DNA of 64,000 nucleotides. Origin: Candidatus Yanofskybacteria bacterium RIFCSPHIGHO2_01_FULL_44_24 (GTDB taxonomy: Bacteria; Patescibacteriota; Minisyncoccia; 2-02-FULL-40-12; GWA2-44-9). Below the pieces are notes generated by a model that made no database searches, was not told the origin of the DNA, and saw only the letters and a program-made list of their open reading frames with translations. Position 1 is the stretch's first letter, and every line of letters begins with the position of its first letter. The translations under genes and the position numbers were made by a program. The stretch is from NCBI GenBank assembly GCA_001794215.1, contig MGJK01000002.1:3310-67309 (forward strand). Direction: 5' to 3'. This document shows positions 4,626 through 42,964 of this stretch, in pieces.

Positions 4626-4652
4626 AAAAGGTCTCTCCGAAGAGGACCTTTT
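4626..4652 (+). terminator. hairpin + T-run after tRNA-Leu (followed by two more short perfect hairpins to ~4690)
   Basis: AAAAGGTC…GACCTTTT 8-bp stem followed by TTTT. Then CCGAAC-TTTC-GTTCGG and GAGAGC-CGAA-GCTCTC hairpins. Confidence 0.4.
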
Positions 4653-4778
4653 CCGAACTTTCGTTCGGTTCGAGAGCCGAAGCTCTCTAATAGGAACTGA
4701 CCTAATAATACCATCTCCATTAATATATGCAACATATTCTTGTGGGTAACTTTTTACGCTTCATCTACGACTCCTTCT

Positions 4779-6249: not shown

Positions 6250-6277
6250 AAAACCGACAGCGTAGTCGGTTTTTTTG
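6250..6277. terminator. bidirectional intrinsic terminator between convergent genes
   Basis: AAAACCGAC-AGCGTA-GTCGGTTTTTTT. Confidence 0.6.
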
Positions 6278-6292
6278 TTTGGGATTAGAGTT

Positions 6293-7195
6293 TTATTTTT
6301 TGTTATGAAAACGCTTATGAACCTCTCTTAACTGTTTATCGGTAACATGGGTATATATTTGGGTCGTAGTGACCGAAGCGTGACCGAGCATTTCTTGAAC
6401 GGAGCGTATATCTGCTCCGTTGCGAAGAAGGTCGGTGGCGTAGGAGTGCCTTATAGTATGGGGTGATATATTCTTTCCCATAATCCCGGCTTTTATCGAG
6501 TATTTTTTTACTATTCTTTGGATGCTTCGGGGCGTCAGGCGAAGATCGGCCTCGGAATTTTTTTTAGAAATCCTTATGAATAGAGCCTCGTCCACGTCGG
6601 TTCTCTTCTTTTCGTATTGATAAATTCTATTTTTGGCATCTTCGGAAAGAAAGACTAATCTTATCTTGCTGCCCTTGCCTATTACCGACAGCTCCCCGCG
6701 CTTTAAATCTATCTTTTCCCGATTCAATGAGCAAAGTTCCGACACCCGCATTCCTGTGCTGAAAAGGACGCTTAGTATTGCCCGATCTCTTAAGGCATCC
6801 AAGTTCTCCCCTTCCGGAGCATTAAGCAATCTTTCGAACTCCTCGTTCTCTAAAAAGGTTACTTCCCGGGCCTCTTGTTTGCCAAGTTCAATTTTTTCGG
6901 CCGGAACAGACTTGATTCCTATTTTTGCCAGGTATTTCAAAAAATTTCTCAGGGAAATGACATGATAATTCTGAGTGATTCTTTTCAGGGTTTTTCCATT
7001 AGTATCCCTTAGGCGGTTAATAAAAAGCCTGTATTGGCGTATCAAGTCCTCGGTTAAATCATCTGCGTTGTTTGTTTTGGCAAAGCTCAAAAAACGGTCG
7101 AGATATCGGCTGTAGTTTTCTATGGTTTTAGCCGAACGTCCTTTTTCTATTTCAAGGTATTCGAGGTATCGATTTTTCAGTTCTTTTAAGTCCAT
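6293..7195 (-). CDS. tyrosine site-specific recombinase, XerC/XerD family
   Basis: N-terminal SAM-like domain (YLEYLEIEKGRSAKTIENY). C-terminal catalytic block HTIRHSYATDLLRNGADIRSVQEMLGHASVTTTQIYTH with the R…HxxR…Y residues. Confidence 0.85.
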   Translation of the reverse strand: MDLKELKNRYLEYLEIEKGRSAKTIENYSRYLDRFLSFAKTNNADDLTEDLIRQYRLFINRLRDTNGKTLKRITQNYHVISLRNFLKYLAKIGIKSVPAEKIELGKQEAREVTFLENEEFERLLNAPEGENLDALRDRAILSVLFSTGMRVSELCSLNREKIDLKRGELSVIGKGSKIRLVFLSEDAKNRIYQYEKKRTDVDEALFIRISKKNSEADLRLTPRSIQRIVKKYSIKAGIMGKNISPHTIRHSYATDLLRNGADIRSVQEMLGHASVTTTQIYTHVTDKQLREVHKRFHNKK

Positions 7196-9630: not shown

Positions 9631-12128
<2,498 letters not shown>

Positions 12129-12129
12129 A

Positions 12130-12648
12130 TTAGTTTAAAAGCTCCAGCGTTATGTCTCTTGATACGACAGTCGTTTGAAGATCGGCGCTGAAAACGCTAT
12201 TGCCGATTACGTTTCTTACAGATGCTATCATGGTCACTTTCGTTGATTGATTGTCGCCGTTCCCCGATCCCCCGTTTCCGGTTATGCAGAATTTGAAAGT
12301 ATCGAAGGTAACGTCGCTCGAGTTTAATACCGATCCGTTCTTCACGAGATTGCCCCCGCTCAAGCTGTAAGTGATCGAACCGCGGATGGGGTGGTCTATG
12401 CTTAAAGTTGTTGCGGTGCAGGCAGAGTTTGCGCTGGTTACTTCGCTGACTTGGATCTCTTTGATCATGGATTCGAAAACAAATATGATGTTTTCCTGAA
12501 CCTTTTGGGCAGATCTTCCCCCGCGCTCTATCTGTACAGATTTACCGAATATGCCCGTGACGGCCAAAAGAGTAACAGAAAAAACGAAAGCTGCAACAAT
12601 CAACTCTATCACGGTGAAGCCTCTATTGTTCGGGGTAGATTTGATCAT
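12130..12648 (-). CDS. minor pilin / pseudopilin with prepilin-type N-terminal cleavage-methylation motif
   Basis: RGFTVIELIVAAFV class III signal (G-F-T-x-x-E). Confidence 0.75.
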   Translation of the reverse strand: MIKSTPNNRGFTVIELIVAAFVFSVTLLAVTGIFGKSVQIERGGRSAQKVQENIIFVFESMIKEIQVSEVTSANSACTATTLSIDHPIRGSITYSLSGGNLVKNGSVLNSSDVTFDTFKFCITGNGGSGNGDNQSTKVTMIASVRNVIGNSVFSADLQTTVVSRDITLELLN

Positions 12649-13155
12649 TTATCTCCAGTTAAACAAATGAGATTCGACGGTTATAACTTTAGTATCCTTA
12701 CGTTCAGGCCACGAAACTTGGCTTAAAATTTTAATTTCACAATTGCAAGTTCCGACCCTCGATATGCTTATTTTTCGCGTAAAAAGAGAATTACTTCCGG
12801 TTGAGTAGTTATACAGTCCGGTCGTCGAATCTAATTTCAACGGCGGATTTGACCCCAAGGGTATCGGGGCGGCCGAGTCCCACTGGACTACCCAATCGCA
12901 TATTGACTGTCCGCAATCGGCAAGATTTGCGTCAAATAACAAGCCGTTAAACCAGTTGGCATCCCTGATTGATCGGACGACTTCGATCCCTTCGCGGGCT
13001 AAGTTAGAAGCGATCAGATCGTTTTTGATGATACTTGCCAAGTTGTTGGTCACGGTGATCGACATAAAAATCGGAACTAATCCCAAAATCAAAATAAATA
13101 TCGAGATAATTGCTTCAATCAGGGTCATCCCTTTGTTCTTTGGGGTCGTCTTCAT
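12649..13155 (-). CDS. minor pilin / pseudopilin
   Basis: KGMTLIEAIISIFIL prepilin signal. Confidence 0.7.
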   Translation of the reverse strand: MKTTPKNKGMTLIEAIISIFILILGLVPIFMSITVTNNLASIIKNDLIASNLAREGIEVVRSIRDANWFNGLLFDANLADCGQSICDWVVQWDSAAPIPLGSNPPLKLDSTTGLYNYSTGSNSLFTRKISISRVGTCNCEIKILSQVSWPERKDTKVITVESHLFNWR

Positions 13156-13156
13156 T

Positions 13157-13753
13157 TTATGGACAAGATCCGGTTTTGGTTATTTCAACCCTTCCCGAAA
13201 TGTATACGCATATTTTTATGCAGTTTTTGTTGCCGGTATTGCATTGCTGCTTGGTAACGCCGATTTTTCTAATAACAACTTCTTCGGGCTGGGATTGGGT
13301 CTGGGTGTTGCCGATATAGGTTTGGGGGTCCGGCGGTTCATAGTATATGTCCTTAAATCTCGGATTCGTTTCAAATTCTAAGCGCGAATCGAGCACCACC
13401 GTTTTAAATGTCGGGGTGTCCTGGCTGGTCTGCCAGGCTCTCGAACTGCAGTTGGCCGTTGAGGCGGGTCCGGCGTAAATAATATACGTTTGACTGCTGG
13501 ATTGATCCTGGTGGACACCGTATCCGCAGCGGCTGACCGGCTGAGAGTCCAATGGTCCCTGATATTTACGGGCTGATATCGCGTAAGCCTGGGTATTTCT
13601 AAGATCTGACAACACGACGTTTGCGACTCTTTCTATGTTGAGCTGCGTCGTAAAATTTCTGATAAGGGTGATCGTAAGAAAAGAGGTGATGGTGATTACG
13701 ACTAAAAGGTCGACGAGGCTGAATCCGGCCGGCTTTTTAAAAAAAATTAACAT
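13157..13753 (-). CDS. minor pilin / pseudopilin
   Basis: AGFSLVDLLVVITI prepilin signal. Confidence 0.7.
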   Translation of the reverse strand: MLIFFKKPAGFSLVDLLVVITITSFLTITLIRNFTTQLNIERVANVVLSDLRNTQAYAISARKYQGPLDSQPVSRCGYGVHQDQSSSQTYIIYAGPASTANCSSRAWQTSQDTPTFKTVVLDSRLEFETNPRFKDIYYEPPDPQTYIGNTQTQSQPEEVVIRKIGVTKQQCNTGNKNCIKICVYISGRVEITKTGSCP

Positions 13754-13762
13754 ATCCGGATT

Positions 13763-14254
13763 TTATTCTTGGTTAATCTCGATAATATCGCCGACCTGTA
13801 CTTTTATCTTGTTCAGATCTTCGGAATTAATTCTGCCGCGGTTGAGATAAAAGGCCAGGTTTTTGGGTAAGGCGGAGCCATAACCGTTTATTTCGGCTAT
13901 TTCGGTTGTATTATCAGGACGGATATAGTATCGAATATGGATTTGTCCGGCTGCGGCAGAAGCAATCAGGGCATCCAATACGGTCATGTTCTCGGTTACC
14001 TCTCCCTGAAACATTCTGGGTCCGTTTTCTATGGATATTATGAGCGTTGCGGTACCGGCCGATTTAAGATCGGGATAGGCGGTTATTGACCAGATAATAA
14101 ATACGGCCGAAATAGAGAGAGTTAAAATCAAAAGAAACCAAACCAGAGGAGCTTCAGTTCCCCTGAGAATTTTGGACAGCCTAAACTCTATAAGTTTTCG
14201 CAAATTTAAAAATTTAGAAGAATAAGTTGATAAACTGAATTTTTTGTATTTCAT
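13763..14254 (-). CDS. hypothetical membrane protein in pilus operon
   Basis: 163-aa ORF with one TM helix, overlapping the pilD stop. No family recognised. Confidence 0.4.
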   Translation of the reverse strand: MKYKKFSLSTYSSKFLNLRKLIEFRLSKILRGTEAPLVWFLLILTLSISAVFIIWSITAYPDLKSAGTATLIISIENGPRMFQGEVTENMTVLDALIASAAAGQIHIRYYIRPDNTTEIAEINGYGSALPKNLAFYLNRGRINSEDLNKIKVQVGDIIEINQE

Positions 14255-14978
14255 TCTGAAAGATAACGAATAGTATTGTTACTGCCGATAAGAATGATCC
14301 AAACGGCAAGGCGGTTTTTAGATCAGCTTTCTTCAGGGCCATCAGCAGGGTTCCGAACAATGCCGCAACCCAGACCGAAATTATTATTGCGAATAATCCG
14401 AACGGGTAGCCCAGAATCAGTCCGATCGCAAACGACAATTTAGCGTCTCCCAGGCCCATCCACTCCCCTTTCGAGATTATATATATCATAGCAAAAAAGG
14501 TTCCGAAGATAAAAGCAGAAATAAGGCCATTGTAAAAATGAGACCTTCCCGCAAATGATAAGAACAGGAAAGACGAGGCGACCATCAGGAGAGTAACCTT
14601 GTCGGGGATAATCAAATATAGAATGTCAAAAAAAACCAGCATCACCAGCAGCAGTAGGATAAAAAGGCTGTATAGAGATAGGGCGCCCAACCCAAGCCCG
14701 TTCATGAGGAAGTAGAGAGTTATAACGCAGGCGGTGGTCAGTTCCACGATAGGGTATATGGCCGATAACTTTTTCTTGCAGTACCGGCATCGGCCTTTGA
14801 TTTGCAGATAGCTGAACAAGGGAAAAAGATCATACCACTTGAGCCGGGCAAGGCATTTGGTGCATTTGGATCTTCCCAGGAATATTCCACCTTCCCGATC
14901 CAGGCGGAATAAGACGACGTTTATAAAACTTCCGATAACTAAACCCAAAACAAAAGTAAAAACATAGAAGATAGCCAT
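14214..14978 (-). CDS. pilD: prepilin peptidase (A24 family)
   Basis: Polytopic membrane protein with the N-terminal Cys tetrad (CTKC…CRYC) and the Asp-containing block GLGDAKL typical of PilD. Confidence 0.85.
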   Translation of the reverse strand: MAIFYVFTFVLGLVIGSFINVVLFRLDREGGIFLGRSKCTKCLARLKWYDLFPLFSYLQIKGRCRYCKKKLSAIYPIVELTTACVITLYFLMNGLGLGALSLYSLFILLLLVMLVFFDILYLIIPDKVTLLMVASSFLFLSFAGRSHFYNGLISAFIFGTFFAMIYIISKGEWMGLGDAKLSFAIGLILGYPFGLFAIIISVWVAALFGTLLMALKKADLKTALPFGSFLSAVTILFVIFQNEIQKIQFINLFF

Positions 14979-23548: not shown

Positions 23549-23637
23549 GGAGGTGTGGCTGAGCGGTCTAAAGCGGCACGGTGCTAACGTGTTGTCCGGG
23601 TTAAACTGGACCGCAGGTTCGAATCCTGCCACCTCCG
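23549..23637 (+). tRNA. tRNA-Ser (anticodon GCT)
   Basis: Acceptor GGAGGTG/CACCTCC, anticodon stem-loop GCACG-GTGCTAA-CGTGT, long variable arm, T-arm GCAGG-TTCGAAT-CCTGC. Confidence 0.75.
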
Positions 23638-26358: not shown

Positions 26359-26445
26359 GGTGAGGTGGCCGAGTGGTTTAAGGCAGCACACTTGAAATGT
26401 GCCGTACGGGAAACCGTACCGTGAGTTCGAATCTCACCCTCACCG
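26359..26445 (+). tRNA. tRNA-Ser (anticodon TGA)
   Basis: GGTGAGGTGGCCGAGTGGTTTAAGGC D-arm typical of tRNA-Ser. Anticodon stem-loop GCACA-CTTGAAA-TGTGC, long variable arm, T-arm GTGAG-TTCGAAT-CTCAC. Confidence 0.85.
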
Positions 26446-26488
26446 CCGAGGTTTAGCGAATAGTGATTCCCCATTTAAATATAGACAT

Positions 26489-27139
26489 ATGGCTCATTTA
26501 ATAGATTTAAGAAAAAAACCGAAAGAGGCAGTAAAAAAGATTGAAACCGTCAGAAAGATCGGCTATCCTCCTTTGCGTCGCGATAGTAAAAGGCTGAGCC
26601 GGCCGGTTATTAGCAGTGAAAGTGGCGTCAGGGTATCTAATAGCGTCTTAAGGGCGGTAGATAATGAGCACAGACTTGCCAGGCCCGTTATTTCTTGGGA
26701 GGCCCCATCGTTTTACTATAATCCGCAGAAAAAATACTTATCAATGATCATCATGGGTTTGGTAGCTGCCGGAGGCGGACTGTGGATCTTTCAGAAAGAC
26801 AGCTTATCGGCTATTTTTCTGATGATGACATCTTTGATGTTTATTCTTTACGCCAACAAAAAGCCGACCGTATCTCAGATTATCGTTAATGATACCGGAG
26901 TATCCGTTGCTGATACGCACTATCCTTACAGGGATCTGAAATCGTTTTGGATTGATTACAATCCCGGGGGTAACAAGGAGTTGAGCCTTGAGTCAAAGAA
27001 GTGGTATCTCCCCTACGTAAAGGTGTCTATCGCCCAAAAGGATCCTATTGAAATCAGATCCCTGATGTTAAGTTTTATTCCAGAAAAGCAGCATGAAGCC
27101 TCAATAGCCGATTTAATTGCCAGGAAAATCGGCCTTTAA
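26489..27139 (+). CDS. hypothetical membrane protein (216 aa)
   Basis: Internal ATG chosen because the longer ORF overlaps tRNA-Ser(TGA). Two TM helices in the middle. Confidence 0.45.
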   Translation: MAHLIDLRKKPKEAVKKIETVRKIGYPPLRRDSKRLSRPVISSESGVRVSNSVLRAVDNEHRLARPVISWEAPSFYYNPQKKYLSMIIMGLVAAGGGLWIFQKDSLSAIFLMMTSLMFILYANKKPTVSQIIVNDTGVSVADTHYPYRDLKSFWIDYNPGGNKELSLESKKWYLPYVKVSIAQKDPIEIRSLMLSFIPEKQHEASIADLIARKIGL

Positions 27140-27273: not shown

Positions 27274-27350
27274 GTCCCCGTAGCTCAGCTGGATAGAGCG
27301 TCAGATTGCGGATCTGAAGGCCGGGTGTTCGAATCACCCCGGGGACACCA
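27274..27350 (+). tRNA. tRNA-Arg (anticodon GCG as read; CCA encoded)
   Basis: GTCCCCGTAGCTCAGCTGGATAGAGCG…, anticodon stem-loop TCAGA-TTGCGGA-TCTGA, T-arm GGGTG-TTCGAAT-CACCC, acceptor CGGGGAC-A-CCA. Confidence 0.8.
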
Positions 27351-31984: not shown

Positions 31985-33451
31985 CTATTCGGCCTTTTCT
32001 GTAAACTCGAACTCCACATTGTCTTTATTCACGGAAGCCCTAATTTTGCCGGAAAATTTCGGACGTCGATAAAGCTCTCTTGCTAACGGCCGTTTCAGTA
32101 TCGATTTGATCTTATGGTTCAGCAGTCTTGCTCCAACCTCCGGCCGATGCGCGCTTTTATCAAGTATATGCTGTTTTACGGCCCCATCTATATCGAGGCT
32201 GATTCCCTTGTCAAGAAGATTTTGACAGAAAAGTTCGACCTGGTCGTTGACTATTTGGAGAAGGACGGCTTTAGACAGTGGTCTGAAAACAACTACATCA
32301 TCCAACCTTCCGCGAAATTCCGGAGGAAATGTTTTTTCAAGCTCCTTCTCGGCTATTCCGAGGATTTTGTTTTCCAAATTCTCTAAGCCATCTTCTGTAC
32401 ATTCGGTTCTATCGGAAGAACTGCCCGATCTGGTCTGACCGAATCCGATCGATCGGCCCTTTAGAATATCACCCATAGTTCTCGCACCGACATTAGAAGT
32501 GAGAATGATGAAGCTGTTCCTAAGGTCGCTCTCTATCCCGTTAGCCAAGGTTACCTTGCCGTCTTCCATGATTTGAAGAAGCAATCTATGGATAGCCGGA
32601 TCAGCTTTTTCAATTTCATCAAAAAGGATTATTGCCATCGGGTCTTCGTTTTCAACGTCTTCATCGGCAGGTGTAAGCAGTTTGGGATTAAGCCGGCTCA
32701 GCTCCATATCGATATCGGATAGTTGCCATATAACCTGAGATTCTTTGATCCGCAACTCAACCGCCATTCTGCTGAATTCGGATAACTCTATTTCGGTCAT
32801 TTTGGTCAGGGCCTCTATGTCCCGCATGTCTATATTGGGCTTATGAGGAGGATCTCTTCGGTCCGCATTCATATTGCGGGAAATGTCAAAATAAAATTCC
32901 AGAGCGTCTCTTATCAAAAGAAGATCATTATTCAGGGTCATAATTTTTTCCTGATTTTTTTGAAATTCTCTTCTCAGGCCTTTTAGCTCTCTGAGCAACT
33001 CCATTTTTAAGCCCAATAACTTCTGAACTCTTGGATCCGGGTTATCAGCTTTCGGATTGACATCTCGTCCGTTCTTAAATATTACCTCGGGAGACAGAAG
33101 CGGTTTGTTGTCGAAGCCGATATAGCTTGGCGGAGCGCCAAGGAGAGTCTGAATAGTGTGGGGCTGGCTTAGCGTTTCACATTCTATTTTCGTTAAAGCA
33201 TCTTCGCTGCCAAAGTAAAACTCTGCCAAAGCGCGAGCTGTCTCCGTCTTCCCGACTCCGCTGGGACCCAAGAACAGTACGACGCCCACCGGTCCTCTTT
33301 TTTTAGTCTCTATTTTTCTGTTAAGCACTTCATTGTCTTGGATCAGGTTTGCAACGGTATAGACAGCCTTGGGTTGACCCCGAACTCTCTTAGATAAGTG
33401 GTCTTTAAGGCGTTCAATCTCGTTTAGAAAGTCATTACCACCCATAGACAC
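31985..33451 (-). CDS. Clp/Hsp100 D2-type AAA+ unfoldase (ClpA/ClpC second-module-only) with ClpP-docking IGF loop and a ~130-aa insertion
   Basis: GPSGVGKTE Walker A, ILFDEIEKA Walker B, LTSNVG sensor-1 and PEFRGRLD; a C-terminal GAR motif is present. KGRSIGFGQ aligns with the IGF/IGL ClpP-binding loop. Collinear with ClpA D2 by eye. Confidence 0.8.
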   Translation of the reverse strand: MSMGGNDFLNEIERLKDHLSKRVRGQPKAVYTVANLIQDNEVLNRKIETKKRGPVGVVLFLGPSGVGKTETARALAEFYFGSEDALTKIECETLSQPHTIQTLLGAPPSYIGFDNKPLLSPEVIFKNGRDVNPKADNPDPRVQKLLGLKMELLRELKGLRREFQKNQEKIMTLNNDLLLIRDALEFYFDISRNMNADRRDPPHKPNIDMRDIEALTKMTEIELSEFSRMAVELRIKESQVIWQLSDIDMELSRLNPKLLTPADEDVENEDPMAIILFDEIEKADPAIHRLLLQIMEDGKVTLANGIESDLRNSFIILTSNVGARTMGDILKGRSIGFGQTRSGSSSDRTECTEDGLENLENKILGIAEKELEKTFPPEFRGRLDDVVVFRPLSKAVLLQIVNDQVELFCQNLLDKGISLDIDGAVKQHILDKSAHRPEVGARLLNHKIKSILKRPLARELYRRPKFSGKIRASVNKDNVEFEFTEKAE

Positions 33452-33489
33452 CCCAGTTTATAAAGGAGCTTATTGCAGTATATCCATGA

Positions 33490-33575
33490 GAAATAAAAAA
33501 TCAACCCCGTTAGAGGTAGCCTCGCCAAGGTTCTTCGGACTCACGCCCCTGGGCGTGAGCGAGACCTCTAACGGG
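33490..33575 (-). terminator. second (nested double-hairpin) terminator downstream of Ubl operon
   Basis: On the minus strand: CCCCGTTAGAGGT…(inner CTCACGCCC/GGGCGTGAG hairpin)…ACCTCTAACGGGG followed by TTGATTTTTT. Confidence 0.5.
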
Positions 33576-33613
33576 GCTAACCCCGCTTTCCATTGGAAGT
33601 ATTCTCATACTTC

Positions 33614-33638
33614 CAAAAAAAGAACCCGTTTTCGGGTT
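33614..33638 (-). terminator. intrinsic terminator immediately after Ubl gene
   Basis: Minus strand: GAACCCG-AAAA-CGGGTTC followed by TTTTTTT. Confidence 0.7.
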
Positions 33639-33649
33639 CATGGGGTCGA

Positions 33650-33931
33650 TTAACCTCCAGAAAGGCGAGGCGCAATCGTTACCGTGGACGGCTGGACCAG
33701 TATAGGATTTTCCTTCAGCTCGCCCTCATGGTGGTTGATCAATCTTGAGTTGAGCAGAATAGAATGTCCGGCCAAGTTCAGACCGGGATGGGTCTTTAGA
33801 AACTTTTTCAGCAGGTCTGATAGCCGAGCGCCCGGCTCCAAGCTGACCTTCTCGGGCTTGCCGCCTATAGTGACGGTGTGTTCAAGCTCTTTTGTGCTTG
33901 GATTTCTATCCTTCGGTTTCTCTGTCTCCAT
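33650..33931 (-). CDS. ubiquitin-like / ThiS-MoaD-like beta-grasp protein ending in Gly-Gly
   Basis: 93 aa. The C-terminus …VTIAPRLSGG-stop is a free diglycine with no pro-sequence. A TVTIGG…beta-grasp-like core is present. Confidence 0.65.
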   Translation of the reverse strand: METEKPKDRNPSTKELEHTVTIGGKPEKVSLEPGARLSDLLKKFLKTHPGLNLAGHSILLNSRLINHHEGELKENPILVQPSTVTIAPRLSGG

Positions 33932-33956
33932 TGATTCTCCTTCTCCCCTCTCGTTT

Positions 33957-34613
33957 TTATATTATCTCTTTTTTATCCGTTTTTACAAGGGGAAGATCTT
34001 CGAAGTTGACGACTACTTCGAGGAATTTATCTCGAAAACTATCGTCCTTTTTGATAAGAATAAGAATTTTAGCCACAGCCGCCGCTACCGCCCAAAGAGC
34101 AGGCACTGTTTCTATTGTGGCACAGGCCGGGTTGAGGACTCTTTTATCGGAATACAGCATCTGTGCGTATTGGCTGATTGAACCTTGCTGGCGGGGGTTA
34201 AAAGCATAAACATAAGCCGTATTTCCACCCGTACGGGCCTCAATATAGTAAGAAACTGAAGCATCGTTTTTACAGGCTTCAAAGATTTCCCTTCTGGCGG
34301 CCATACTGTCCACCATTACGATGACTATTCCTCGCAGACGTAAAATGTCGCTTTGGTTTATTTTCACCGGCTCGGTTTTGATATTTTTTTCAGTCAGCAG
34401 GTAGACAATTTTCTTGAGCGAGTCTGCTTTCAAAGATCCGGCATCGGATAATCTGTAGAGCTGGTTATCGGTGTTATGGGATTCTACCTTGTCGTGGTCG
34501 AATACCTCGATTTCGCAGCCTATGGCATGAGCTATTTTGCTTATTAGAAGAGCCTGGAAGCTTCCCAAGCTTCCCGCGCCTATCAGGGTGATCTTTTCAG
34601 TCATCATCGTCAT
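33957..34613 (-). CDS. E1-like ubiquitin/ThiS-activating enzyme (ThiF/MoeB/HesA family)
   Basis: ITLIGAGSLGS Rossmann motif and FDHDKVESHNTDNQ (the DxDxVExSNLNRQ-type ATP-binding block). The protein is short (218 aa). Confidence 0.75.
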   Translation of the reverse strand: MTMMTEKITLIGAGSLGSFQALLISKIAHAIGCEIEVFDHDKVESHNTDNQLYRLSDAGSLKADSLKKIVYLLTEKNIKTEPVKINQSDILRLRGIVIVMVDSMAARREIFEACKNDASVSYYIEARTGGNTAYVYAFNPRQQGSISQYAQMLYSDKRVLNPACATIETVPALWAVAAAVAKILILIKKDDSFRDKFLEVVVNFEDLPLVKTDKKEII

Positions 34614-35205
34614 TTCCGGAAGTTTTAACTGGTTTTACAATCTTTACTTTTTGCTTGATTATTTCCGACATTCTTTCCTCATTATCTTTCAGCAGTCGCT
34701 CCAGCATCGACGGTGACAATTTTTCTGTAAACTCAAATTCTCTTATCAGTGTTCTTAAAAGAGGTTCCGGCCTGTAACGCCATAGTTCCATGTAGACTTG
34801 GCACCTCTTGTTCACTACCATAGCCAGCCACCAGTCGTAGTCTTGGCCTATAAGCCTCATAGTTGAAAGGTCTTCGTCGCTCAAACCCACCCCGGACCAC
34901 ACATGACTATGCCACCAAAGTCTTGCCTCCTGAATTATATTTTCCTGGCCGGCTAAAACCATTTTTTCCTGCCAGAGAAGATAAGCCGTTTCGTCGAATG
35001 TAGTTTTCACGAGGCTACAGGTCTGATCAAATACGATCGGCTCCCCATGGATTACATAGATCGAATCTCTTTTTTCGATTTTGGCTAAGCCCGAGACTTC
35101 AACTTCGCACACCATGGCGGCAAGCATAATTTCCACAAAAGTTTTAGGTTCGAATACAATTCTTGCGTTCTTGGAATTTCCCAAGTTCATCATAACCCGC
35201 CCCAT
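34597..35205 (-). CDS. JAB/MPN (JAMM) metalloisopeptidase
   Basis: JAMM motif HSHVWSGVGLSDED (HxH-x7-S-xxD) with an upstream Glu in …CEVEVSG. Confidence 0.75.
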   Translation of the reverse strand: MGRVMMNLGNSKNARIVFEPKTFVEIMLAAMVCEVEVSGLAKIEKRDSIYVIHGEPIVFDQTCSLVKTTFDETAYLLWQEKMVLAGQENIIQEARLWWHSHVWSGVGLSDEDLSTMRLIGQDYDWWLAMVVNKRCQVYMELWRYRPEPLLRTLIREFEFTEKLSPSMLERLLKDNEERMSEIIKQKVKIVKPVKTSGNDDDD

Positions 35206-37022
35206 TGCGGCGTATAGCCGGACTTTGGATTTAATATTCCGGATTCGACAATTTTTTTCGCCACCAATAAAATATCGGCCACTTCGCCGGATAACTGAAG
35301 TCTCGCTATTTCTTGTATGGCGTCGCTTAGGGATTTGTTTTCGAAAATCGGCAGTTTAGGATCGGCTCCATCGGCCGAGAGGATCACATGTTTTAAAGTC
35401 GAGCTTAGTGATCCAAAATGTAACTCGGGCGGAGATTCCGGCTGAAGTCTCAAGATATAACCGAGAACTTTTTGGAGCGTTTCTCCGGAAGATTGTTCCG
35501 AATGAAAATATACCTGCAACTCATTTGGGGTTACTTCTATCCCGAAAACACCAGGACCATCTAAAAGCTCGACTACCCCTAACTGGGCCATGTAGCCGAT
35601 CTTATCGAGCTTTTGTTCTAAAATTTTTCCGTTTTCCCAAGTTTCTATTGCCGCATGATGCAAAGAAACTCTTTCTTGCTGAAGAAACGCCATGTCGTCT
35701 TTGAGCTTGTTTATTTTGGCTTTTAATTCGTTGGATCGACGGGCAAAAAGCTGGGTGCGGTATACGTCGATGAAGTGATTTTTTTCCCTTATTTTTTCTT
35801 CCGGACTTGAGTAGGTATCGGTATCTTCTTCTCGATCCCAGTCTGAAGTTTTGCGCTGATTCGGAGTACTGCTTTCTTTGATTAGGAAGGTAATCAGTAC
35901 ATGAACTAAGGCGGCGATATCCAGATCAATCATCAGTTGCTGGATGTCTCTGTTAAGACCATTGGTATTGTCTGTGCCGAAGCAAGTGTTAGCGCCATCT
36001 CTTGCATGGATGTGCTCATAGGGTCCGCGGTAGCGTTTTTGCATAAATCTTATACCATTCAAGTCTTTTGATGCGGGGTCGATCATTATTTCGTATTTAC
36101 CGAGATCATATCTATGAGATTTTACAAGATCATTGTCCGGAACCTGAAATATTCTGCCGGTGCTTATGATTATCTTGGGAAGAGCGGTATCTTCGCCGAT
36201 TATCCTCACCGTTTCCACGGCCTCCATGGCCAATATCTTTTCAAATTCTGCCTCAAGGTTCGTTTCCGCCAATCTGGCTGTGACATTTTTTATGCGCTCT
36301 TCTGCATCGGCAAGCTCCAGAGCCCTTTTATAGTAGTCATATCTCCTTGTCAGGGTTTTAGCCGTCAGTTTTTCAAGTTCTTCGGAGTTCTTGGTTATCC
36401 TTTGGGTCATGAAATTAAGAAAGTATTTTCTCATTTCGGACTCGATATCTTTTCTGCCGTCCCCTTTTCTTATTTTTTGGCAATTCAGTTCTCCGAGCCG
36501 GCGGTACGAATCTTTCCAATCAATCGCTCCATCCATTCGGCCGGCATAAATTATATGGGGGAGGCTCCAGTACAAAATCCAGTTGAGCATTTTATAGTCT
36601 TCCGTATTAGAAACTCCCCCTAATACGCCCGGAAAAACATAAAGATCTCTTTGTAGGATCCAGCCGATCGTATAACCTTCCGGAGAATCGATCGGTATCC
36701 CGAAGTTAGCCTTAGCTTCTTCAAGCGAAGGAGATTCAGGAGACAGTTTCTGGCCAAAAAGCGTTTGCGGACGCCGTCTATTCTTCTGCTTAGACTTTTC
36801 CAGGTAGCTGTTTACGTGAATGTAGACGGTATTGTCGGCCGGATTTGATGTGCCTGAAAACATGCCGTTGGGCATGTCTATAGATAGTTTAATATTCAGC
36901 GCCGCGCCGATACGGTTTAGAAAATGCAGGAATTTTCGAAGACTCAGCGCGTCTTGAGGACTGGCGCAGTTTTCTTCGTTTACCGTAGCATGTTCAAATC
37001 CGCGGGAATCAGTCTCTTTCAT
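35190..37022 (-). CDS. large hypothetical protein (610 aa) co-operonic with JAB/E1/Ubl; possible E2/E3-like or adaptor
   Basis: Overlaps the JAB start. Contains long coiled-coil segments and a His…Cys block YEHIHARDGANTCFGT. No confident family assignment. Confidence 0.5.
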   Translation of the reverse strand: MKETDSRGFEHATVNEENCASPQDALSLRKFLHFLNRIGAALNIKLSIDMPNGMFSGTSNPADNTVYIHVNSYLEKSKQKNRRRPQTLFGQKLSPESPSLEEAKANFGIPIDSPEGYTIGWILQRDLYVFPGVLGGVSNTEDYKMLNWILYWSLPHIIYAGRMDGAIDWKDSYRRLGELNCQKIRKGDGRKDIESEMRKYFLNFMTQRITKNSEELEKLTAKTLTRRYDYYKRALELADAEERIKNVTARLAETNLEAEFEKILAMEAVETVRIIGEDTALPKIIISTGRIFQVPDNDLVKSHRYDLGKYEIMIDPASKDLNGIRFMQKRYRGPYEHIHARDGANTCFGTDNTNGLNRDIQQLMIDLDIAALVHVLITFLIKESSTPNQRKTSDWDREEDTDTYSSPEEKIREKNHFIDVYRTQLFARRSNELKAKINKLKDDMAFLQQERVSLHHAAIETWENGKILEQKLDKIGYMAQLGVVELLDGPGVFGIEVTPNELQVYFHSEQSSGETLQKVLGYILRLQPESPPELHFGSLSSTLKHVILSADGADPKLPIFENKSLSDAIQEIARLQLSGEVADILLVAKKIVESGILNPKSGYTPQWGGL

Positions 37023-37054
37023 TCCACATCCTTTTTAAGGAACGGGCTATAGAG

Positions 37055-37083
37055 CTTATATGATAAAAAAATTGTTTTTGCAA
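37055..37083 (-). promoter_or_regulatory. putative sigma70-type promoter for the 610aa-JAB-E1-Ubl operon
   Basis: Minus strand TTGCAA-17 nt-TATAAG, located ~35 nt upstream of the start codon. Confidence 0.35.
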
Positions 37084-37109
37084 CCTCGCCAAGGCTTTGA
37101 GGCAGCGAT

Positions 37110-37143
37110 TTTAAAAACAAAAAACTCCGCATTTGCGGAGTTT
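37110..37143 (-). terminator. intrinsic terminator after AAA ATPase gene
   Basis: Minus strand CTCCGC-AAAT-GCGGAG followed by TTTTTTGTTTTT. Confidence 0.6.
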
Positions 37144-37151
37144 GAATATGT

Positions 37152-39119
37152 CTAAGATAGCTTGGGCTTGGCGGTATTGCTTTCCGCCCCGATTATTCCA
37201 AGGCTCCTGGCCGCTTTATACCATCTGCCCTCTTTAGGGATAAATCTCAAGCTGTTACAGAATGAAAGGGCGAGTAGGGTCATCTGGTTATGGATTAGCA
37301 TATCTCTTGGCGGGATATAGTCGTTTAGGGCTTCAAGCAGGTGTTTTCCGGAGAGAGCTTCATTCATTCCGGCCGAGTTTGCAATAGCTCTCCTGATTAT
37401 ATTTTCAATCTGGCCGCCGGTGAAATAAATTTCATCTTCTCCGTCCTTGTCCATATCTAATGCCAACGAGTGAAATTCATCCGGGTCGCATTTACGAATT
37501 TCTTGACTAATAAGGTGGCAATGGGACATCCGGGCGAATTCTCTGACTAATTTAAGTTCGACTTCAGAGGTTTTCAGCGGAGAATTTGTCGCATCGGACA
37601 GGACGGCATATTTGTACAAAAGAGCTCCGACGATATCGACCCTCTCTTTGGCTGAAGGAGGGAAGAACGGTATCTTATCATCAAATCTTCCGTCTCTGAG
37701 CAGGGCCGGATCTATGAGGTCGGGCCTATTAGATGCCGCAATCCACATGACTTTCCCGCGCAAATTGGTATCGGACATGAACATGAATAATCTTCCCTGA
37801 AGCCTGTTATTGACCCCGGAGTCCCCCACTGGAGCCTCTGATCTCGTCTGCAGTTCTTGATCAATCTCATCCATAAACACGACCACCGGAGCAAGCACTA
37901 AAATCAATTCGAGGGCGAAGTCTAAGTTTCTTTCCGATTGTCCGACCCATTTTTCCCGGATATTCTTCAGGGTTACGAATGGAACTTCGGCTTCATATGC
38001 CACTGACTGGGCAAAAACAGTTTTGCCCGTTCCGGGAGCTCCGAGCAGAAGTACTCCGGTAGGTATTGAGGAAAGATTGCCCGCCCGCATGTGTTCCACG
38101 ACACGAGCGATATAACGCTTATGCTCGTCGAGGCCGCCTATCGCTTTTATTCCGCAGATCGGCCTGATTACCTCAACTAATCCTCCGGATTGTTCTTCGA
38201 TAAATTTTTTCTTTCTTTCAAACAGAACTCTGTGGGTTATCGGTTCGGATTTGTAAGATGATTCTTTGACCAGGCTCGTGATCGCATTTATGGACATTCC
38301 AGCAGAGTGTTGGGCGAAGGCTCGAACGTCTAAATTTCTCGATGTTTCTCGGCCTTTTAAAAGCCACCCATACAGGAGGGCTCTTTTTGTTTGATCCGGA
38401 AAGTCTATCTTCACCGGGACTATTCCATGTGTCTCCGATTCCAATTGATTCGCTACCGAAGTCAGGCCCTCGGTCAAAAGAAATAAGATATTCCGGGATA
38501 AGCGTATCGACTGATCTTTTGATATAGTCAGCAGGTATACAAGTGCGGATCGGTCGTCGGACGAAGAAGAATGGGCAGAATTCGGCGGTACGATTGTCTC
38601 AAGATATTCGAACACTGCTCCGAAGAACGGCTTATGGGATTTATCGGCCAAGAACTTTTTAAATTCTTCCGGTTCCCGATCTTCGCGTATCAGCTCTGAC
38701 ATCTCGGCTTTTTTATCAATAATTTTGGTGACGTCTTTCCAGCCGATTCTTAGCATGTGGGAGAAGAGCTTAAGAGCGTAGCCAAGAGAATGTCTTTTTG
38801 CATGAAATTCTTCAACGGCCTCGTTTCCCCCGCCTAATGCCGGCGGAAGTTTCTTTGATTTAACGATGGCCAAAAACTTGAGGAATTTTTCCTCCGATTT
38901 TTCACTGGCGAATCGGATACCCTCGCCTATGTTGTAAAAGGCGACGAACTCAGCCTCAGATAGCGGCGAATTATTCAAGATCAGGTCATTAATTGATTCG
39001 AGTCGGGTATTGCTCCCTCTCGATACTAAAAAGGCATCAGACACGTTCAGGTGCAGCAAGAACGTATGAGATGCCCCTGATTTGAATTTATTGTCAATTT
39101 CCTTGAGCCAGCCTTCCAT
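37152..39119 (-). CDS. classical AAA family ATPase (Cdc48/FtsH/PAN-like single AAA module) with ~330-aa N-terminal domain
   Basis: Walker A LLLGAPGTGKT, Walker B VVFMDEID, and second region of homology ASNRPDLIDPALLRDGRFD. Confidence 0.8.
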   Translation of the reverse strand: MEGWLKEIDNKFKSGASHTFLLHLNVSDAFLVSRGSNTRLESINDLILNNSPLSEAEFVAFYNIGEGIRFASEKSEEKFLKFLAIVKSKKLPPALGGGNEAVEEFHAKRHSLGYALKLFSHMLRIGWKDVTKIIDKKAEMSELIREDREPEEFKKFLADKSHKPFFGAVFEYLETIVPPNSAHSSSSDDRSALVYLLTISKDQSIRLSRNILFLLTEGLTSVANQLESETHGIVPVKIDFPDQTKRALLYGWLLKGRETSRNLDVRAFAQHSAGMSINAITSLVKESSYKSEPITHRVLFERKKKFIEEQSGGLVEVIRPICGIKAIGGLDEHKRYIARVVEHMRAGNLSSIPTGVLLLGAPGTGKTVFAQSVAYEAEVPFVTLKNIREKWVGQSERNLDFALELILVLAPVVVFMDEIDQELQTRSEAPVGDSGVNNRLQGRLFMFMSDTNLRGKVMWIAASNRPDLIDPALLRDGRFDDKIPFFPPSAKERVDIVGALLYKYAVLSDATNSPLKTSEVELKLVREFARMSHCHLISQEIRKCDPDEFHSLALDMDKDGEDEIYFTGGQIENIIRRAIANSAGMNEALSGKHLLEALNDYIPPRDMLIHNQMTLLALSFCNSLRFIPKEGRWYKAARSLGIIGAESNTAKPKLS

Positions 39120-39928
39120 TAGCGGATCCCTTTTTGATATATGGCGTCGATAATCGGATCGCCGGGGAGAAGCACTTTATCTATCATCCCCGCTTCAAGG
39201 GCCTCTTCGGGTGCCATCAGCGTCTCGTTGTCGATGAAAGCCTTAACTAATTTGACCCTCTCTTTCTTATTTTTTAATAGATTCTTATCGTAACCCGCAA
39301 GATCCATTCTTTTAACCTGGAGCTCCGGTATTTTAGAATTGTCAGAAATCATTTCATAAATAGTCTGATTAAGCCGCGATTGGTATTTATGGACTTCTTC
39401 TATATCGTGTTCTCTTGCTCCGCCGGCGCCTCTTAGTCCGAAGTGGGTATGGGTTAATGTATTTTCAAGCGCATAGCGCCTTCTCGGAGTACCCATCATC
39501 AGGATTATTCCTCCCATACTCATGCTCTGGCACAGGTTTACTGTCCAGACCTCGATACCCTTTGCCTTAAGGTGATTCATGGCTTGGATGATTGTGAACC
39601 CGGCCTGAATATCGCCTCCCGGACTGTTGATGACGATTTTCACGGGGTCTTTGCTCTCTGTTCCCAAGATCATCAAAGATCCGTAAACTTCTTCGGCTAC
39701 GCTTGGAAAACTGCTTGGTGAAGAAATCTGCTGACTCGATATGATCTGGCTGAAGATCGGTATTGTTCGAGCTTCGCGAGCCAAGAATACCCAAGGATCA
39801 ACAAGGGTTACGGGTTTTTCGCTCCAGGGCTTAACAAGCATGACTCGTCTCCTTTCGATAATGTAAAAGATCGGAATACCAAGCATAATTTCATATAATT
39901 TATTAAGGGTCAATAGGTGTTTAGGCAA
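39119..39928 (-). CDS. ClpP-like serine protease (S14 family) with ~70-aa N-terminal extension
   Basis: INSPGGDIQAGFTIIQAM resembles the ClpP YINSPGG block. A catalytic-Ser block CQSMSMGG and a downstream His region are present. The start overlaps the holA stop. Confidence 0.7.
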   Translation of the reverse strand: MPKHLLTLNKLYEIMLGIPIFYIIERRRVMLVKPWSEKPVTLVDPWVFLAREARTIPIFSQIISSQQISSPSSFPSVAEEVYGSLMILGTESKDPVKIVINSPGGDIQAGFTIIQAMNHLKAKGIEVWTVNLCQSMSMGGIILMMGTPRRRYALENTLTHTHFGLRGAGGAREHDIEEVHKYQSRLNQTIYEMISDNSKIPELQVKRMDLAGYDKNLLKNKKERVKLVKAFIDNETLMAPEEALEAGMIDKVLLPGDPIIDAIYQKGIR

Positions 39929-40886
39929 TAGTAAGAATGAATTTCGACAGAGAGTCCTCTAAGTTGACGGTTCCCTGCTTAGACCGGGTATCCATCTCCA
40001 AAAGTTTGCCATAAATTTTGACTAATTCCTGCGTATCGAATTTGGATATATTTTTCTTTATTTTGTTGGCTACATAGGGGTGTACGCCGGATTTTGATAT
40101 TAGGCTGTTAAGGGGAACATTTCTGGAGGCGATGTCTTTGACGGTGATTATATTTCTGAACTGGTATACAATCATCGACAAAATGTAGTAGGGGTCTCGC
40201 CCGGTCCATAGTTCTTTGTAAAGAAGTCCAAGGGCAAGGACTTTGTCTCTGGCCGCTATGGCATCGATCAGATCAAAGATGTTCATGTCAATCTTGGGAA
40301 CAATCAGGTTCGTTACGTCTTTTTCCCCGACCTCTTCTTGCTTTGTGTAATTAGCCAATTTTTCCACCTCATTCATCAGTTGCCAGCTGTCGTTACCGGT
40401 CAGCTCTATCAGTTTGTTCTTCCCTTCGGGGCTGATATGCTTGCCCCTTGTCTGAAATTCGTTCTCGATCCAGTCATGCAATTTTGAACCGGTCAGCGGT
40501 TCGAATGATTTGACCGTATTCTCCTTATTTAAAAGAAGGTCGAATAATTTACTGTTTTTTTCCGATAAATCTTTGCCGGACATGTTTTCTGAAATTAACA
40601 AAACTATATCCTTAGAATCGGCGATTTCATGTTTTCTCAAGATTCCTAATAATTCGGCCGACAGGTTTTTATTGGCAAAAAACCCTGATCCGGTTATAAG
40701 TTTCAGCTCGTTGAAGAAAGAGACGCTTTTGAGGGCATCCTCGAGAACGCTTGTATTTTCTTTATCTGAAAAGTCAAAATTAAAAATATTCAGACCGCTC
40801 TGGTATTTTTTTCTGTAACTGTCCTCCACTCTATCCCTATTCTGTTTTAGCCGGTACCCGTCGGAACCGTATAGGAAAATGATCAA
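39921..40886 (-). CDS. holA: DNA polymerase III subunit delta
   Basis: MIIFLYGSDGYRL N-terminus and the overall HolA architecture (~320 aa). Confidence 0.7.
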   Translation of the reverse strand: MIIFLYGSDGYRLKQNRDRVEDSYRKKYQSGLNIFNFDFSDKENTSVLEDALKSVSFFNELKLITGSGFFANKNLSAELLGILRKHEIADSKDIVLLISENMSGKDLSEKNSKLFDLLLNKENTVKSFEPLTGSKLHDWIENEFQTRGKHISPEGKNKLIELTGNDSWQLMNEVEKLANYTKQEEVGEKDVTNLIVPKIDMNIFDLIDAIAARDKVLALGLLYKELWTGRDPYYILSMIVYQFRNIITVKDIASRNVPLNSLISKSGVHPYVANKIKKNISKFDTQELVKIYGKLLEMDTRSKQGTVNLEDSLSKFILTIA

Positions 40887-41998: not shown

Positions 41999-42964
41999 TT
42001 ATTTTAATTTTTGATGCTTGGGGCAGAAGTGTGCCGAACGTCCTCCGACTCTGATCCTCTTTATGGTTCCTCCGTCATTTTTCCCGCATTTTTTACCGGT
42101 TTGCTGATAGGCGCATTGCACTTCTTGATAACCGCCTTTTTCTCCCGAGGGCAGGCGGTAATCATCCATACTGTCACCCTTGTAATTTATCGCCTTTCGG
42201 AGGATTTTAACAGTCGATTTGCGTATTTTTTCGATGTCTCGGGGCTTTAAATTTTCAACGCGGCTGAGCGGATGGCACCCAGAGTCCCAAAGTATTTCAT
42301 CGCTATAAATATTGCCTATGCCGGCGATGAATTTCGGGTCCATCAATACCGGCTTTAGGCGTCCTCTTTTTGAAATGAATAAAGACAGGAATTTTTTAGC
42401 GTCTATTTCAAGGGGTTCCGGCCCCAGTTCTTTTATTTCTTTAAGATTCGGCAGATCGGCGTCTTTAACCAGCATAACCTTGCTGAATCTTCTCAGGTCA
42501 GACATAGCCATCTGGCCGCCGTTTCCGAAGGTCCATAGGTAGCGGATGTATTGATTTTCTCGGTCTTTCTTAAGGGGTCCGGAAATTGCCGAGATCCATC
42601 TTCGTTTTGAATTGTGCATTTTGCCCGCCCGCCGAAGCCTTGGCGAAGGAGGGAATCTTGAATTTGTTTCGAGTTTGGGATTTAGGATTTCGGATTTCAT
42701 TTTCCAGCGCCCGTACATCAGGTGGCCGGATATTTTTTGGTGGATAAATATGGTCTTATCCCCTTCTATGTCTATGACGATATATTTCGCTCTTCGATTG
42801 ATGCTTAATACCTTCTTATTTCTTATTTCTTTAAGAAAAGCTCTAGATCCGCCGGCCTGTTTCAGGGGTTTTTCTCTGTCAGTCCAAAAATCGGTTATTT
42901 TCAAACCGACTATCTTCTTACGCAGTTCTCTGACTATTGTTTCAACTTCGGGCAATTCCGGCAT
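41999..42964 (-). CDS. mutM: formamidopyrimidine-DNA glycosylase
   Basis: N-terminal MPELPEVE (catalytic Pro2/Glu3), H2TH region, and a C-terminal zinc finger C…C…C…HFC. A ~50-aa basic insertion makes it 321 aa. Confidence 0.85.
   Translation of the reverse strand: MPELPEVETIVRELRKKIVGLKITDFWTDREKPLKQAGGSRAFLKEIRNKKVLSINRRAKYIVIDIEGDKTIFIHQKISGHLMYGRWKMKSEILNPKLETNSRFPPSPRLRRAGKMHNSKRRWISAISGPLKKDRENQYIRYLWTFGNGGQMAMSDLRRFSKVMLVKDADLPNLKEIKELGPEPLEIDAKKFLSLFISKRGRLKPVLMDPKFIAGIGNIYSDEILWDSGCHPLSRVENLKPRDIEKIRKSTVKILRKAINYKGDSMDDYRLPSGEKGGYQEVQCAYQQTGKKCGKNDGGTIKRIRVGGRSAHFCPKHQKLK

Follow-up and report, generated by a model that had tools for sequence, protein, structure and literature searches.

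A ubiquitin-like conjugation operon beside Cdc48/VAT-like AAA ATPase and ClpP-like protease genes in a Candidatus Yanofskybacteria genome: a candidate tag-and-degrade system

Genes and signals of the block

The window analysed here is a 64-kb stretch of a genome of Candidatus Yanofskybacteria, which belongs to the Candidate Phyla Radiation (CPR)/Parcubacteria; positions are counted from its first nucleotide. On its minus strand lies a gene block encoding a ClpP-like protease, a Cdc48/VAT-like AAA ATPase, a large E2-like protein, a JAB metallopeptidase, an E1-like enzyme and a ubiquitin-like protein (Ubl), considered here as a candidate system in which Ubl tagging is coupled to ATP-dependent proteolysis. 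An initial annotation, made from the sequence alone, had described seven minus-strand open reading frames (ORFs) at this locus; all seven were found in place and are real, essentially as described, and every gene of the block is intact. The genes and signals are as follows.

39921-40886, minus strand: holA (Pfam DNA_pol3_delta and DNA_pol3_delta_C)
39119-39841, minus strand: ClpP-like serine protease, ~240 amino acids (Pfam CLP_protease, 3e-27); the longest ORF reaches 39928
37152-39119, minus strand: Cdc48/VAT-like AAA ATPase, 655 amino acids (Pfam AAA, 2e-27)
37122-37143, minus strand: intrinsic-terminator-like hairpin 3' of the AAA gene (9-bp stem with 5 G-C pairs, then a T-run)
37055-37083, minus strand: promoter-like site of the four-gene operon (TTGCAA, 17 nucleotides, TATAAG)
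35190-37022, minus strand: E2-like protein, 610 amino acids, without a family match
34597-35205, minus strand: JAMM/MPN+ metallopeptidase (JAB), Rpn11/CSN5-like, ~198-202 amino acids, recognised by its motif and without a Pfam match
33957-34613, minus strand: minimal ThiF-type E1-like adenylating enzyme, 218 amino acids (Pfam ThiF, 1e-17)
33650-33931, minus strand: Ubl, 93 amino acids, ending ...PRLSGG-TAA
33622-33639, minus strand: intrinsic-terminator-like hairpin 3' of the Ubl gene (7-bp stem with 5 G-C pairs, then TTTTTTT)
31985-33451, minus strand: accessory ClpA/ClpB-D2-type AAA+ ATPase, 488 amino acids (AAA_2, 1e-36; ClpB_D2-small, 5e-11)

The ClpP-like and AAA genes overlap as TAATG, and the genes for the 610-residue protein and the JAB overlap as ATGA, so that the overlapping stops and starts read at first are borne out and point to translational coupling; the terminators called after the AAA and Ubl genes likewise correspond to the two hairpins listed. 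The promoter that had been assigned to the four-gene operon fared less clearly. The TTGCAA-17-TATAAG site can be seen by eye, which is weak evidence, and it is absent from the listing of the promoter scan owing to the G at the end of its -10 hexamer. An overlap of the ClpP-like gene with holA, also proposed initially, turned out to be an ORF-calling artefact of the longest ORF, which begins with a TTG at 39928. All orthologues begin at the residue equal to M30, which makes the ATG at 39841 the probable start of the gene, and this codon is preceded by a GGAG Shine-Dalgarno sequence and a promoter-like TTGACC-17-AATTAT.

Within the Yanofskybacteria-like clade, sequence identities are 64-66% for the ClpP-like protein, 60% for the AAA ATPase, 53-60% for the JAB, 54% for the E1, 54-63% for the Ubl and 48% for the accessory D2-type ATPase, compared to 54-68% for the flanking housekeeping genes. 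The genes of the system therefore diverge at a similar rate to their neighbours, with the exception of the E2-like gene, the fastest-evolving part of the block at 33-38% identity. This rapid divergence fits a specificity-determining component.

Gene neighbourhood across lineages

The survey drew on contigs that encode relatives of the E2-like or JAB proteins, which were scanned with family hidden Markov models (HMMs); pattern scans gave one locus among genome contigs and three among metagenome contigs. The order AAA, E2-like, JAB, E1, Ubl is found at every one of the 13 cellular loci whose upstream side can be seen (the window, L001, L005, L006, L010, L011, L013, L015, L016, L017, L019, L020 and L022), with identity of the E2-like protein to that of the window falling as low as ~17-25%. 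These 13 loci span at least six unrelated genomic contexts. The block is flanked by holA, polA and fpg in the window, L001, L005, L019 and L020; by ruvA/femAB and a Mur ligase gene in L006; by RRF and PMT glycosyltransferase genes in L010; by genes for S1, gyrA and IF-2 in L011; by thrS and gatB in L013; and by FtsH and proteasome genes in L016.

At eight of the 11 loci showing the side upstream of the AAA gene, its immediate neighbour there is a ClpP-like gene; the other three are L016, L017 and L013. In L016, two proteasome-family genes (alpha-like and beta, at 3338-4881) lie upstream of the AAA gene in divergent orientation, and the beta protein carries the G|TTILAL site with Thr1, together with Asp17 and Lys33; a LonC-like protease gene also follows the Ubl gene of this locus (10693-13074). 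In L017, a LonC-like protease gene is found directly upstream of the AAA gene. The initial annotation had proposed the conservation of the neighbourhood as a test, and the result is positive: in many lineages and contexts the module is accompanied by an AAA and ClpP-like pair on its upstream side, with the protease exchanged in distant relatives. Since the core of AAA, E2-like, JAB, E1 and Ubl is invariant and the chambered protease is replaced in place, tagging and proteolysis appear to belong to one pathway, which is the strongest argument for their connection. The ClpP-like, AAA, E2-like, JAB, E1 and Ubl proteins very probably constitute one functional system.

Two further observations were made on these contigs. 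The contig of L016 also encodes a bacterial-type FtsH, and in L010 a 231-amino-acid protein consisting only of a LON_substr_bdg domain is encoded directly upstream of the ClpP-like gene (6145-6840) and may be an adaptor.

Adjacency could also be historical, with two unrelated operons lying side by side by chance or through shared ancestry. The five loci that share the holA-upstream context (the window, L001, L005, L019 and L020) could indeed represent one ancestral arrangement. However, at least five further, unrelated contexts retain the adjacency despite very low sequence identity, and the neighbourhood survey largely refutes this explanation, which is scarcely credible.

Component proteins and the proposed pathway

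The 610-residue protein is identical to a hypothetical protein from a metagenome-assembled genome of Candidatus Yanofskybacteria. It begins with an alpha/beta domain, and a coiled coil leads into the UBC-like domain (residues 245-405, window 35808-36290), which is followed by a second long helix and, at the C-terminus, a beta domain. A profile search over 1.84 billion representatives recovered ~100 family members (clusters at 50% identity), in long (~600 amino acids) and short (~410 amino acids) forms, the wider family having been missed by word-indexed homologue searches, which returned only three to five close relatives. Relatives were absent from the viral collections IMG/VR and INPHARED at the sensitivity used. 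In an alignment of 62 sequences, G308, G333 and C347 are invariant, while H337, G349 and N357 are conserved in at least 90%, and Cys347 and His337 are the candidate catalytic residues. The local pattern YDIGxFxIxI ... IxFxQ ... H-x9-CFG ... GLN ... LVHLxLxFL resembles, at the level of sequence, the beta-meander, HPN-Cys loop and alpha2 of UBC domains.

Comparison with known E2 enzymes is consistent with this resemblance. Sub-threshold hmmsearch matches to UBE2L3 end at its catalytic Cys86, and H337 and C347, which stand 10 residues apart, fall on the HPN His and the catalytic Cys of UBE2L3 and UBE2D2 in sub-threshold hmmsearch and hhalign alignments. Alignment with four human E2s by hhalign places H337 on the His of the HPN motif and C347 on the catalytic Cys (P 0.0024, probability 12%). 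The Pfam UBC and Prok-E2 models gave no match, and scans of the 610-residue protein, the JAB and the Ubl with Pfam, NCBIfam, PHROGs and PADLOC yielded nothing usable. An AlphaFold model of the full-length protein from three sequences was poor (predicted local distance difference test score, pLDDT, 64) and was kept out of the fold search. The model of residues 245-405 from the 62-sequence alignment reached a pLDDT of 90.2 and a predicted TM-score (pTM) of 0.85, and a Foldseek search of the PDB with it returned nothing significant. An E2 fold had been among the initial proposals for this protein, and the domain model and alignment support a UBC-like fold (alpha1, four-stranded meander, active-site loop, alpha2-4) with an invariant Cys. 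The E2-like gene is also duplicated in some lineages. In L013 (6345-13666; also in L014), three paralogues stand in one block, one before the JAB gene and two after the Ubl gene, which suggests diversification of the component that would select targets.

The other three products of the operon were initially taken for a conjugation module, an assignment that is supported. The JAB motif reads E36...H99-S-H101-x7-S109-x2-D112; among 13 lineages the zinc-site residues E36, H99, H101 and D112 are invariant, and S109 is conserved in at least 90%. All Pfam models fall under threshold, and the best PDB matches of the 13-lineage profile are the Caldiarchaeum Rpn11-like protein, Rpn11 and CSN5 (1e-5 to 1e-4). 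The E1 matches Pfam ThiF with 64.3 bits (cut-off 28.1), its best NCBIfam match being PRTRC_ThiF at 52.6 bits (cut-off 144.75). In all lineages it is a single ThiF (Rossmann) domain of 211-229 amino acids with invariant GxGxxG, DxD, Lys, Asp and a Cys equivalent to ThiF C184. An apparent loss of the E1 gene in L005 reflects an assembly gap of Ns.

The Ubl has a beta-grasp core behind a charged N-terminal tail, and carries a C-terminal GG that in the window directly precedes the stop codon. The GG is invariant in 13 lineages, where it is followed by 0, 0, 1, 2, 2, 3, 4, 4, 4, 4, 5, 14 and 23 residues; these tails are unrelated to one another, a pattern expected from the sequences of a processed Ubl precursor. 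The N-terminal extension (the first ~20 codons, window 33870-33931) has the form M-E-x-E-R-x-K/R and is highly charged in all 13 lineages. It is probably disordered and could serve the unfoldase as an initiation segment, in the manner of the disordered part of Pup.

The best PDB match of the Ubl profile is ubiquitin, aligned end to end, and hhalign gave P values of 3.8e-4 for ubiquitin and 5.3e-4 for SAMP2, compared to 0.13 for ThiS, 0.09 for MoaD and 0.10 for Urm1. These values bear on a sulfur-carrier explanation, in which the E1 would adenylate a carrier of the ThiS/MoaD/CysO type, the JAB would unmask its GG as do Mec+ and QbsD, and the protease genes would be mere neighbours. JAB-trimmed GG carriers do occur in sulfur pathways (Iyer et al. 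2006, PMC1779556), the E1 is of the ThiF family, and the Ubl has a weak match to Pfam ThiS (E 0.024, under the cut-off). However, the Ubl profile is far nearer to ubiquitin and SAMP2, no ThiG, MoaE, CysM or rhodanese genes were found in or near the window region or at ~15 related loci, and the E2-like protein with its invariant Cys and the linkage to the AAA gene are always present. A sulfur carrier, already disfavoured in the initial annotation for want of partner genes, is therefore highly improbable.

The ClpP-like protein scores 96.1 bits against Pfam CLP_protease (PF00574/MEROPS S14; cut-off 20.2), and its best PDB sequence matches are canonical ClpPs (~1e-15). Its best match among the NCBIfam ClpP equivalogs (75 bits) lies far under their cut-offs of 228-361, which sets it apart from orthologues of housekeeping ClpP. 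Catalytic Ser and His are invariant among six lineages. By sequence, it is best described as a true but divergent member of the ClpP family.

The AAA ATPase, read at first as a classical AAA unfoldase, is not a single-ring enzyme of that kind. Its C-terminal, D2-like half has its best PDB matches in the VAT, Cdc48 and p97 D2 domains and retains, in 12 lineages, Walker A GAPGTGKT, the pore loop KWVG, Walker B DEID and the arginines of the second region of homology (SRH). The N-terminal half (~residues 1-320), in an 11-lineage profile, matches residues 291-431 of the Cdc48/p97 D1 (E 6e-7) but has no P-loop and a degenerate Walker B (EYLE). The protein thus contains two classical-clade AAA modules in tandem, D1 and D2, with SRH, and begins straight at the D1-like half, without an N-terminal double-psi-barrel domain or an ATP-binding D1. 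Its motifs identify it as a Cdc48/VAT-like ATPase with a degenerate D1, a D2 predicted to be active and no N domain. In its C-terminal ~60 residues (window 37152-37330), the motif NSxRF[IV]PKEGRW is conserved in the ClpP-linked loci and in L013, and is diverged in L015, where the protease side is not visible, in the proteasome-linked L016 and in the LonC-linked L017. This motif might be a protease-docking element of the AAA ATPase.

The closest relatives of three components act in ubiquitin-dependent unfolding or degradation (Rpn11/CSN5 for the JAB, ubiquitin/SAMP2 for the Ubl and VAT/Cdc48 for the AAA ATPase), which argues for one tag-and-degrade pathway. From gene content, motif conservation, fold assignment and neighbourhood, the following course may be proposed. 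The Ubl would be synthesised with a charged, flexible tail at its N-terminus and with GG at its C-terminus, the latter already exposed in the window; in most relatives, the JAMM peptidase would first trim the short tail that caps the GG. The minimal ThiF-type E1 would then adenylate the GG terminus, possibly forming a thioester on its invariant Cys, and the Ubl would move to Cys347 in the UBC-like domain of the 610-residue protein, whose coiled coils and flanking variable domains would pick targets, making it an E2/E3 hybrid. Tagged proteins would be engaged by the Cdc48/VAT-like ATPase, perhaps through the disordered N-terminal tail of the Ubl, unfolded and translocated into the ClpP-like chamber, while the Rpn11-like JAB would take off and recycle the Ubl. 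On context and homology, it is probable, if only modestly so, that the six-gene system couples Ubl tagging to ATP-dependent proteolysis. More tentatively, it may represent a self-contained analogue of the ubiquitin-proteasome system in some CPR bacteria, with a minimal E1, an E2/E3 hybrid, a Cdc48/VAT-like reader, an Rpn11-like remover and a freely swapped chambered protease.

Several observations weigh against a coupling of tagging to degradation. The link between the two processes is one of gene neighbourhood. The E2-JAB-E1-Ubl operon forms a transcription unit of its own, set off from that of the AAA/protease pair at every locus by a terminator and a gap of ~100-170 nucleotides, and L013 has no protease gene beside the AAA gene. 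In the ClpP-like protein, the Asp of the catalytic triad is not conserved among the six lineages, the position of Escherichia coli Asp171 being occupied by N, H or Q and the next residue being mostly Glu. Neither an IGF loop nor an HbYX docking motif, both of which were sought, is recognisable in the core AAA ATPase. The E1 is minimal, lacking the N-terminal Arg-finger segment and the zinc CxxC motifs, with the 'RQ' arginine replaced by Asn in all members, and comparison with PDB sequences gave no match below 0.01; from its sequence, competence of this E1 is plausible but uncertain. Finally, the phage-like contig L023 carries E2-like, JAB, E1 and Ubl genes without AAA or protease genes, and the conjugation module can thus work on its own.

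L023 itself (a 69-kb Logan contig, SRR32233573) encodes, at 10001-14610, two E2-like paralogues, a 321-amino-acid JAB with an intact HxHx7SxxD motif and a ThiF E1. Its Ubl is 78 amino acids long and ends in ...KGA rather than GG. The contig further carries HNH, Thg1, RNA ligase, TROVE, PTH2 and aminoacyl-tRNA synthetase genes, all on one strand, and no relative was found in INPHARED or IMG/VR.

The presence of a related module on a phage-like contig is one of several points in favour of an antiphage role, in which the Ubl would be placed on invader proteins, such as phage structural proteins, as in Bil-type conflict systems, and the AAA ATPase and protease would be an independent or effector module rather than a receptor for the tag. 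The known bacterial E1/E2/JAB/Ubl operons (Bil, type II CBASS and Bub) either function in antiphage immunity or have a link to it (PMC11601596). The family is also rare, and the rapid evolution of the E2-like protein and its triplication in L013 would suit a conflict system. PADLOC matches were obtained for the E1 (CBASS E1-E2 models, 2e-8), the AAA ATPase (IetA, 7e-18) and the D2-type ATPase (DolB/PDC-M37B), but these span generic AAA and ThiF cores only, and only 56 bits were scored with the NCBIfam IteA model, whose cut-off is 510. The block lies among housekeeping genes in conserved synteny, with no integrase, transposase or defence-island neighbours seen; the E1 lacks the IAD-AAD-CYS architecture of BilD, and there is no CD-NTase, CapW/CapH/CapP regulator or DUF6527 gene. 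In addition, replacement of the protease in place by 20S or LonC would be hard to explain if the protease were unrelated to the tag. An antiphage function of this kind is thus unlikely, though a serious contender. It concerns the role of the system, in defence as opposed to proteostasis or regulation, more than its mechanism, as a defence system could still use tag-directed degradation.

A further explanation for the same conserved neighbourhood is that the Ubl modifies the protease machinery or a few fixed partners without degrading them, for example by regulating the assembly or activity of the AAA ATPase and ClpP-like protease. This would parallel SAMP1 and MPT synthase: archaeal SAMP1 and HvJAMM1 reversibly regulate an enzyme (PMC4443979). 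That no separate E3 or substrate-receptor gene is recognisable would fit such a role. On the other hand, the fast-evolving, multi-domain E2-like protein and its expanded paralogues suggest variable targets, the full translocating pore loop is kept in the AAA ATPase, and the protease type is swapped while the AAA ATPase and Ubl module are retained, as would be expected if the protease were an exchangeable downstream sink. Non-degradative regulation is therefore considered improbable.

Accessory features and comparison with known systems

The ATPase gene downstream of the Ubl gene has its own promoter-like site. The initial reading of a D2-only unfoldase with an IGF loop holds, as SIGF in the window sits at the position of the ClpA IGL loop, with which [IM]GF (SIGF or PMGF) aligns in four lineages. 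That the tagging operon is embedded between two ClpP-type machines does not hold generally: the D2 ATPase is confined to the Yanofskybacteria-like lineages (the window, L001-5 and L018) and is absent from L006, L011, L013, L016, L017, L019 and L020, where LonA (L020) or unrelated genes take its place. It is thus a lineage-specific accessory outside the conserved block. Because the ClpP-like protein is the sole ClpP homologue in the 64-kb window, its ring may have the D2 ATPase as a second unfoldase. Between its GAPPSYIG pore-loop motif and Walker B, it carries a coiled-coil insertion of ~150 amino acids (window 32650-33110), kept in four lineages, which recalls the M-domain of ClpB but lies at another position.

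Elsewhere in the window, fpg (41999-42964) encodes an Fpg/MutM of 321 amino acids, compared to 292 in L001 and L005, owing to an insertion of ~29 residues. Rfam models identify five plus-strand tRNA genes, at 1616-1688, 4461-4544, 23549-23637, 26359-26445 and 27274-27347. The first and fourth of these fall inside long, mechanically called ORFs (1584-2765 and 26399-27139), suggesting that the starts of these two ORFs are over-extended.

The set of roles in the block is shared with the eukaryotic ubiquitin-proteasome/Cdc48 system: a beta-grasp tag ending in GG, an E1, a UBC-fold E2 with His-x9-Cys, an Rpn11/CSN5-like JAMM peptidase, a Cdc48/VAT-like AAA ATPase and a chambered protease. Unlike its eukaryotic counterparts, the 218-residue ThiF-like E1 has a single domain and lacks both a UFD and a Cys domain, the E2-like domain forms part of a 610-residue coiled-coil protein, and RING or HECT E3s are missing. 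Furthermore, the protease is a ClpP-like serine protease rather than 20S, the D1 ring is degenerate, the Cdc48 N domain is missing, and the host is a CPR bacterium. Among archaea, the SAMP/UbaA/HvJAMM system of Haloferax, with proteasome and Cdc48, and the Ub-E1-E2-RING-Rpn11 system of Caldiarchaeum likewise provide prokaryotic Ubl tags linked to proteolysis, and they supply close matches to the present proteins, with SAMP2 scored by the Ubl profile about like ubiquitin and the Caldiarchaeum Rpn11-like protein standing as the best PDB match of the JAB. SAMPylation, however, operates without an E2, whereas the E2-like protein is invariant here; in the Caldiarchaeum operon the E1 is larger, a RING E3 is encoded as well and a linkage to AAA or protease genes is lacking, and neither archaeal system uses ClpP.

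Among bacterial systems, Bil (BilABCD) also consists of four genes for a Ubl, an E2, a JAB peptidase and an E1 with a thioester-type Cys, without an E3 (PMC11601596). BilD is a multi-domain IAD-AAD-CYS protein (PMC11601596), in contrast to the minimal single domain found here. The gene order differs as well, the E2 of the present system takes the form of a large coiled-coil protein, adjacency to AAA and protease genes is obligate, and the chromosomal context in CPR is one of housekeeping genes. The Pup-proteasome system of Actinobacteria (Pup, PafA, Dop, Mpa/ARC and 20S) similarly directs a small-protein tag to an AAA unfoldase and a chambered protease, and a disordered segment of Pup could start threading (PMC8755798). 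Pup is not a beta-grasp protein, however, and its ligase and depupylase are glutamine-synthetase-like rather than E1, E2 or JAB; there is no homology between the two systems. In ClpAP/ClpXP and Iet (IetA-IetS), too, genes for an AAA+ ATPase and a serine protease go together; compared to ClpAP/ClpXP, the core AAA ATPase belongs to the classical Cdc48/VAT clade rather than to Clp/HSP100 and lacks an IGF loop, while a ClpA-type IGF loop is present in the accessory D2 ATPase.

Four known systems were rejected as identities for the block. Iet is set aside by the IteA score (56 bits against 510), by a protease that is ClpP-like rather than subtilisin, and by a likeness to IetA confined to the generic AAA core. 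The Bub system (6E/DUF6527, with Cys-less E1 and E2, oxyester chemistry and BubE) does not agree with the invariant Cys of both the E1 and the E2-like protein, and no DUF6527 match was obtained. For type II CBASS (Cap2/Cap3), no CD-NTase is present, the E1 and E2-like proteins are encoded by separate genes, and the PADLOC E1-E2 matches cover only the ThiF core. For the PRTRC cassette, in which PRTRC proteins A-F and ParB accompany the ThiF protein, the E1 alone gave a match, the sub-threshold one to PRTRC_ThiF (52.6 against 144.75 bits), and no other PRTRC model was matched.

The coupling of ubiquitin-type tagging to an unfoldase and a chambered protease counts as a hallmark of eukaryotes and archaea. 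Pup, the only tag-and-degrade system known from bacteria, is not homologous to the ubiquitin type, and no characterised bacterial E1/E2/JAB/Ubl operon (CBASS, Bil or Bub) is known to feed a protease. No account of a Ubl/E1/E2/JAB operon that is coupled to a Cdc48-like AAA ATPase and a ClpP-like protease, or of such a system in CPR, came up in a literature search of incomplete coverage, and a 2006 survey of prokaryotic ubiquitin antecedents leaves ClpP, AAA+ and Lon unmentioned. The parts are all of known kinds, and their combination appears to be new. As they are all small and soluble-looking, the proposed pathway can be tested directly in vitro.

If the proposal is true, this would be the first pathway of Ubl-directed degradation by ClpP, and coupling of Ubl, Rpn11 and Cdc48 functions to a protease would exist in bacteria. 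The system would offer a minimal and compact genetic model of coupled tag recognition, deubiquitination and unfolding with an interchangeable protease, and would bear on the origin of the connection between ubiquitin and the proteasome. For the poorly understood CPR bacteria, it would represent a new mode of regulated proteolysis through ClpP.

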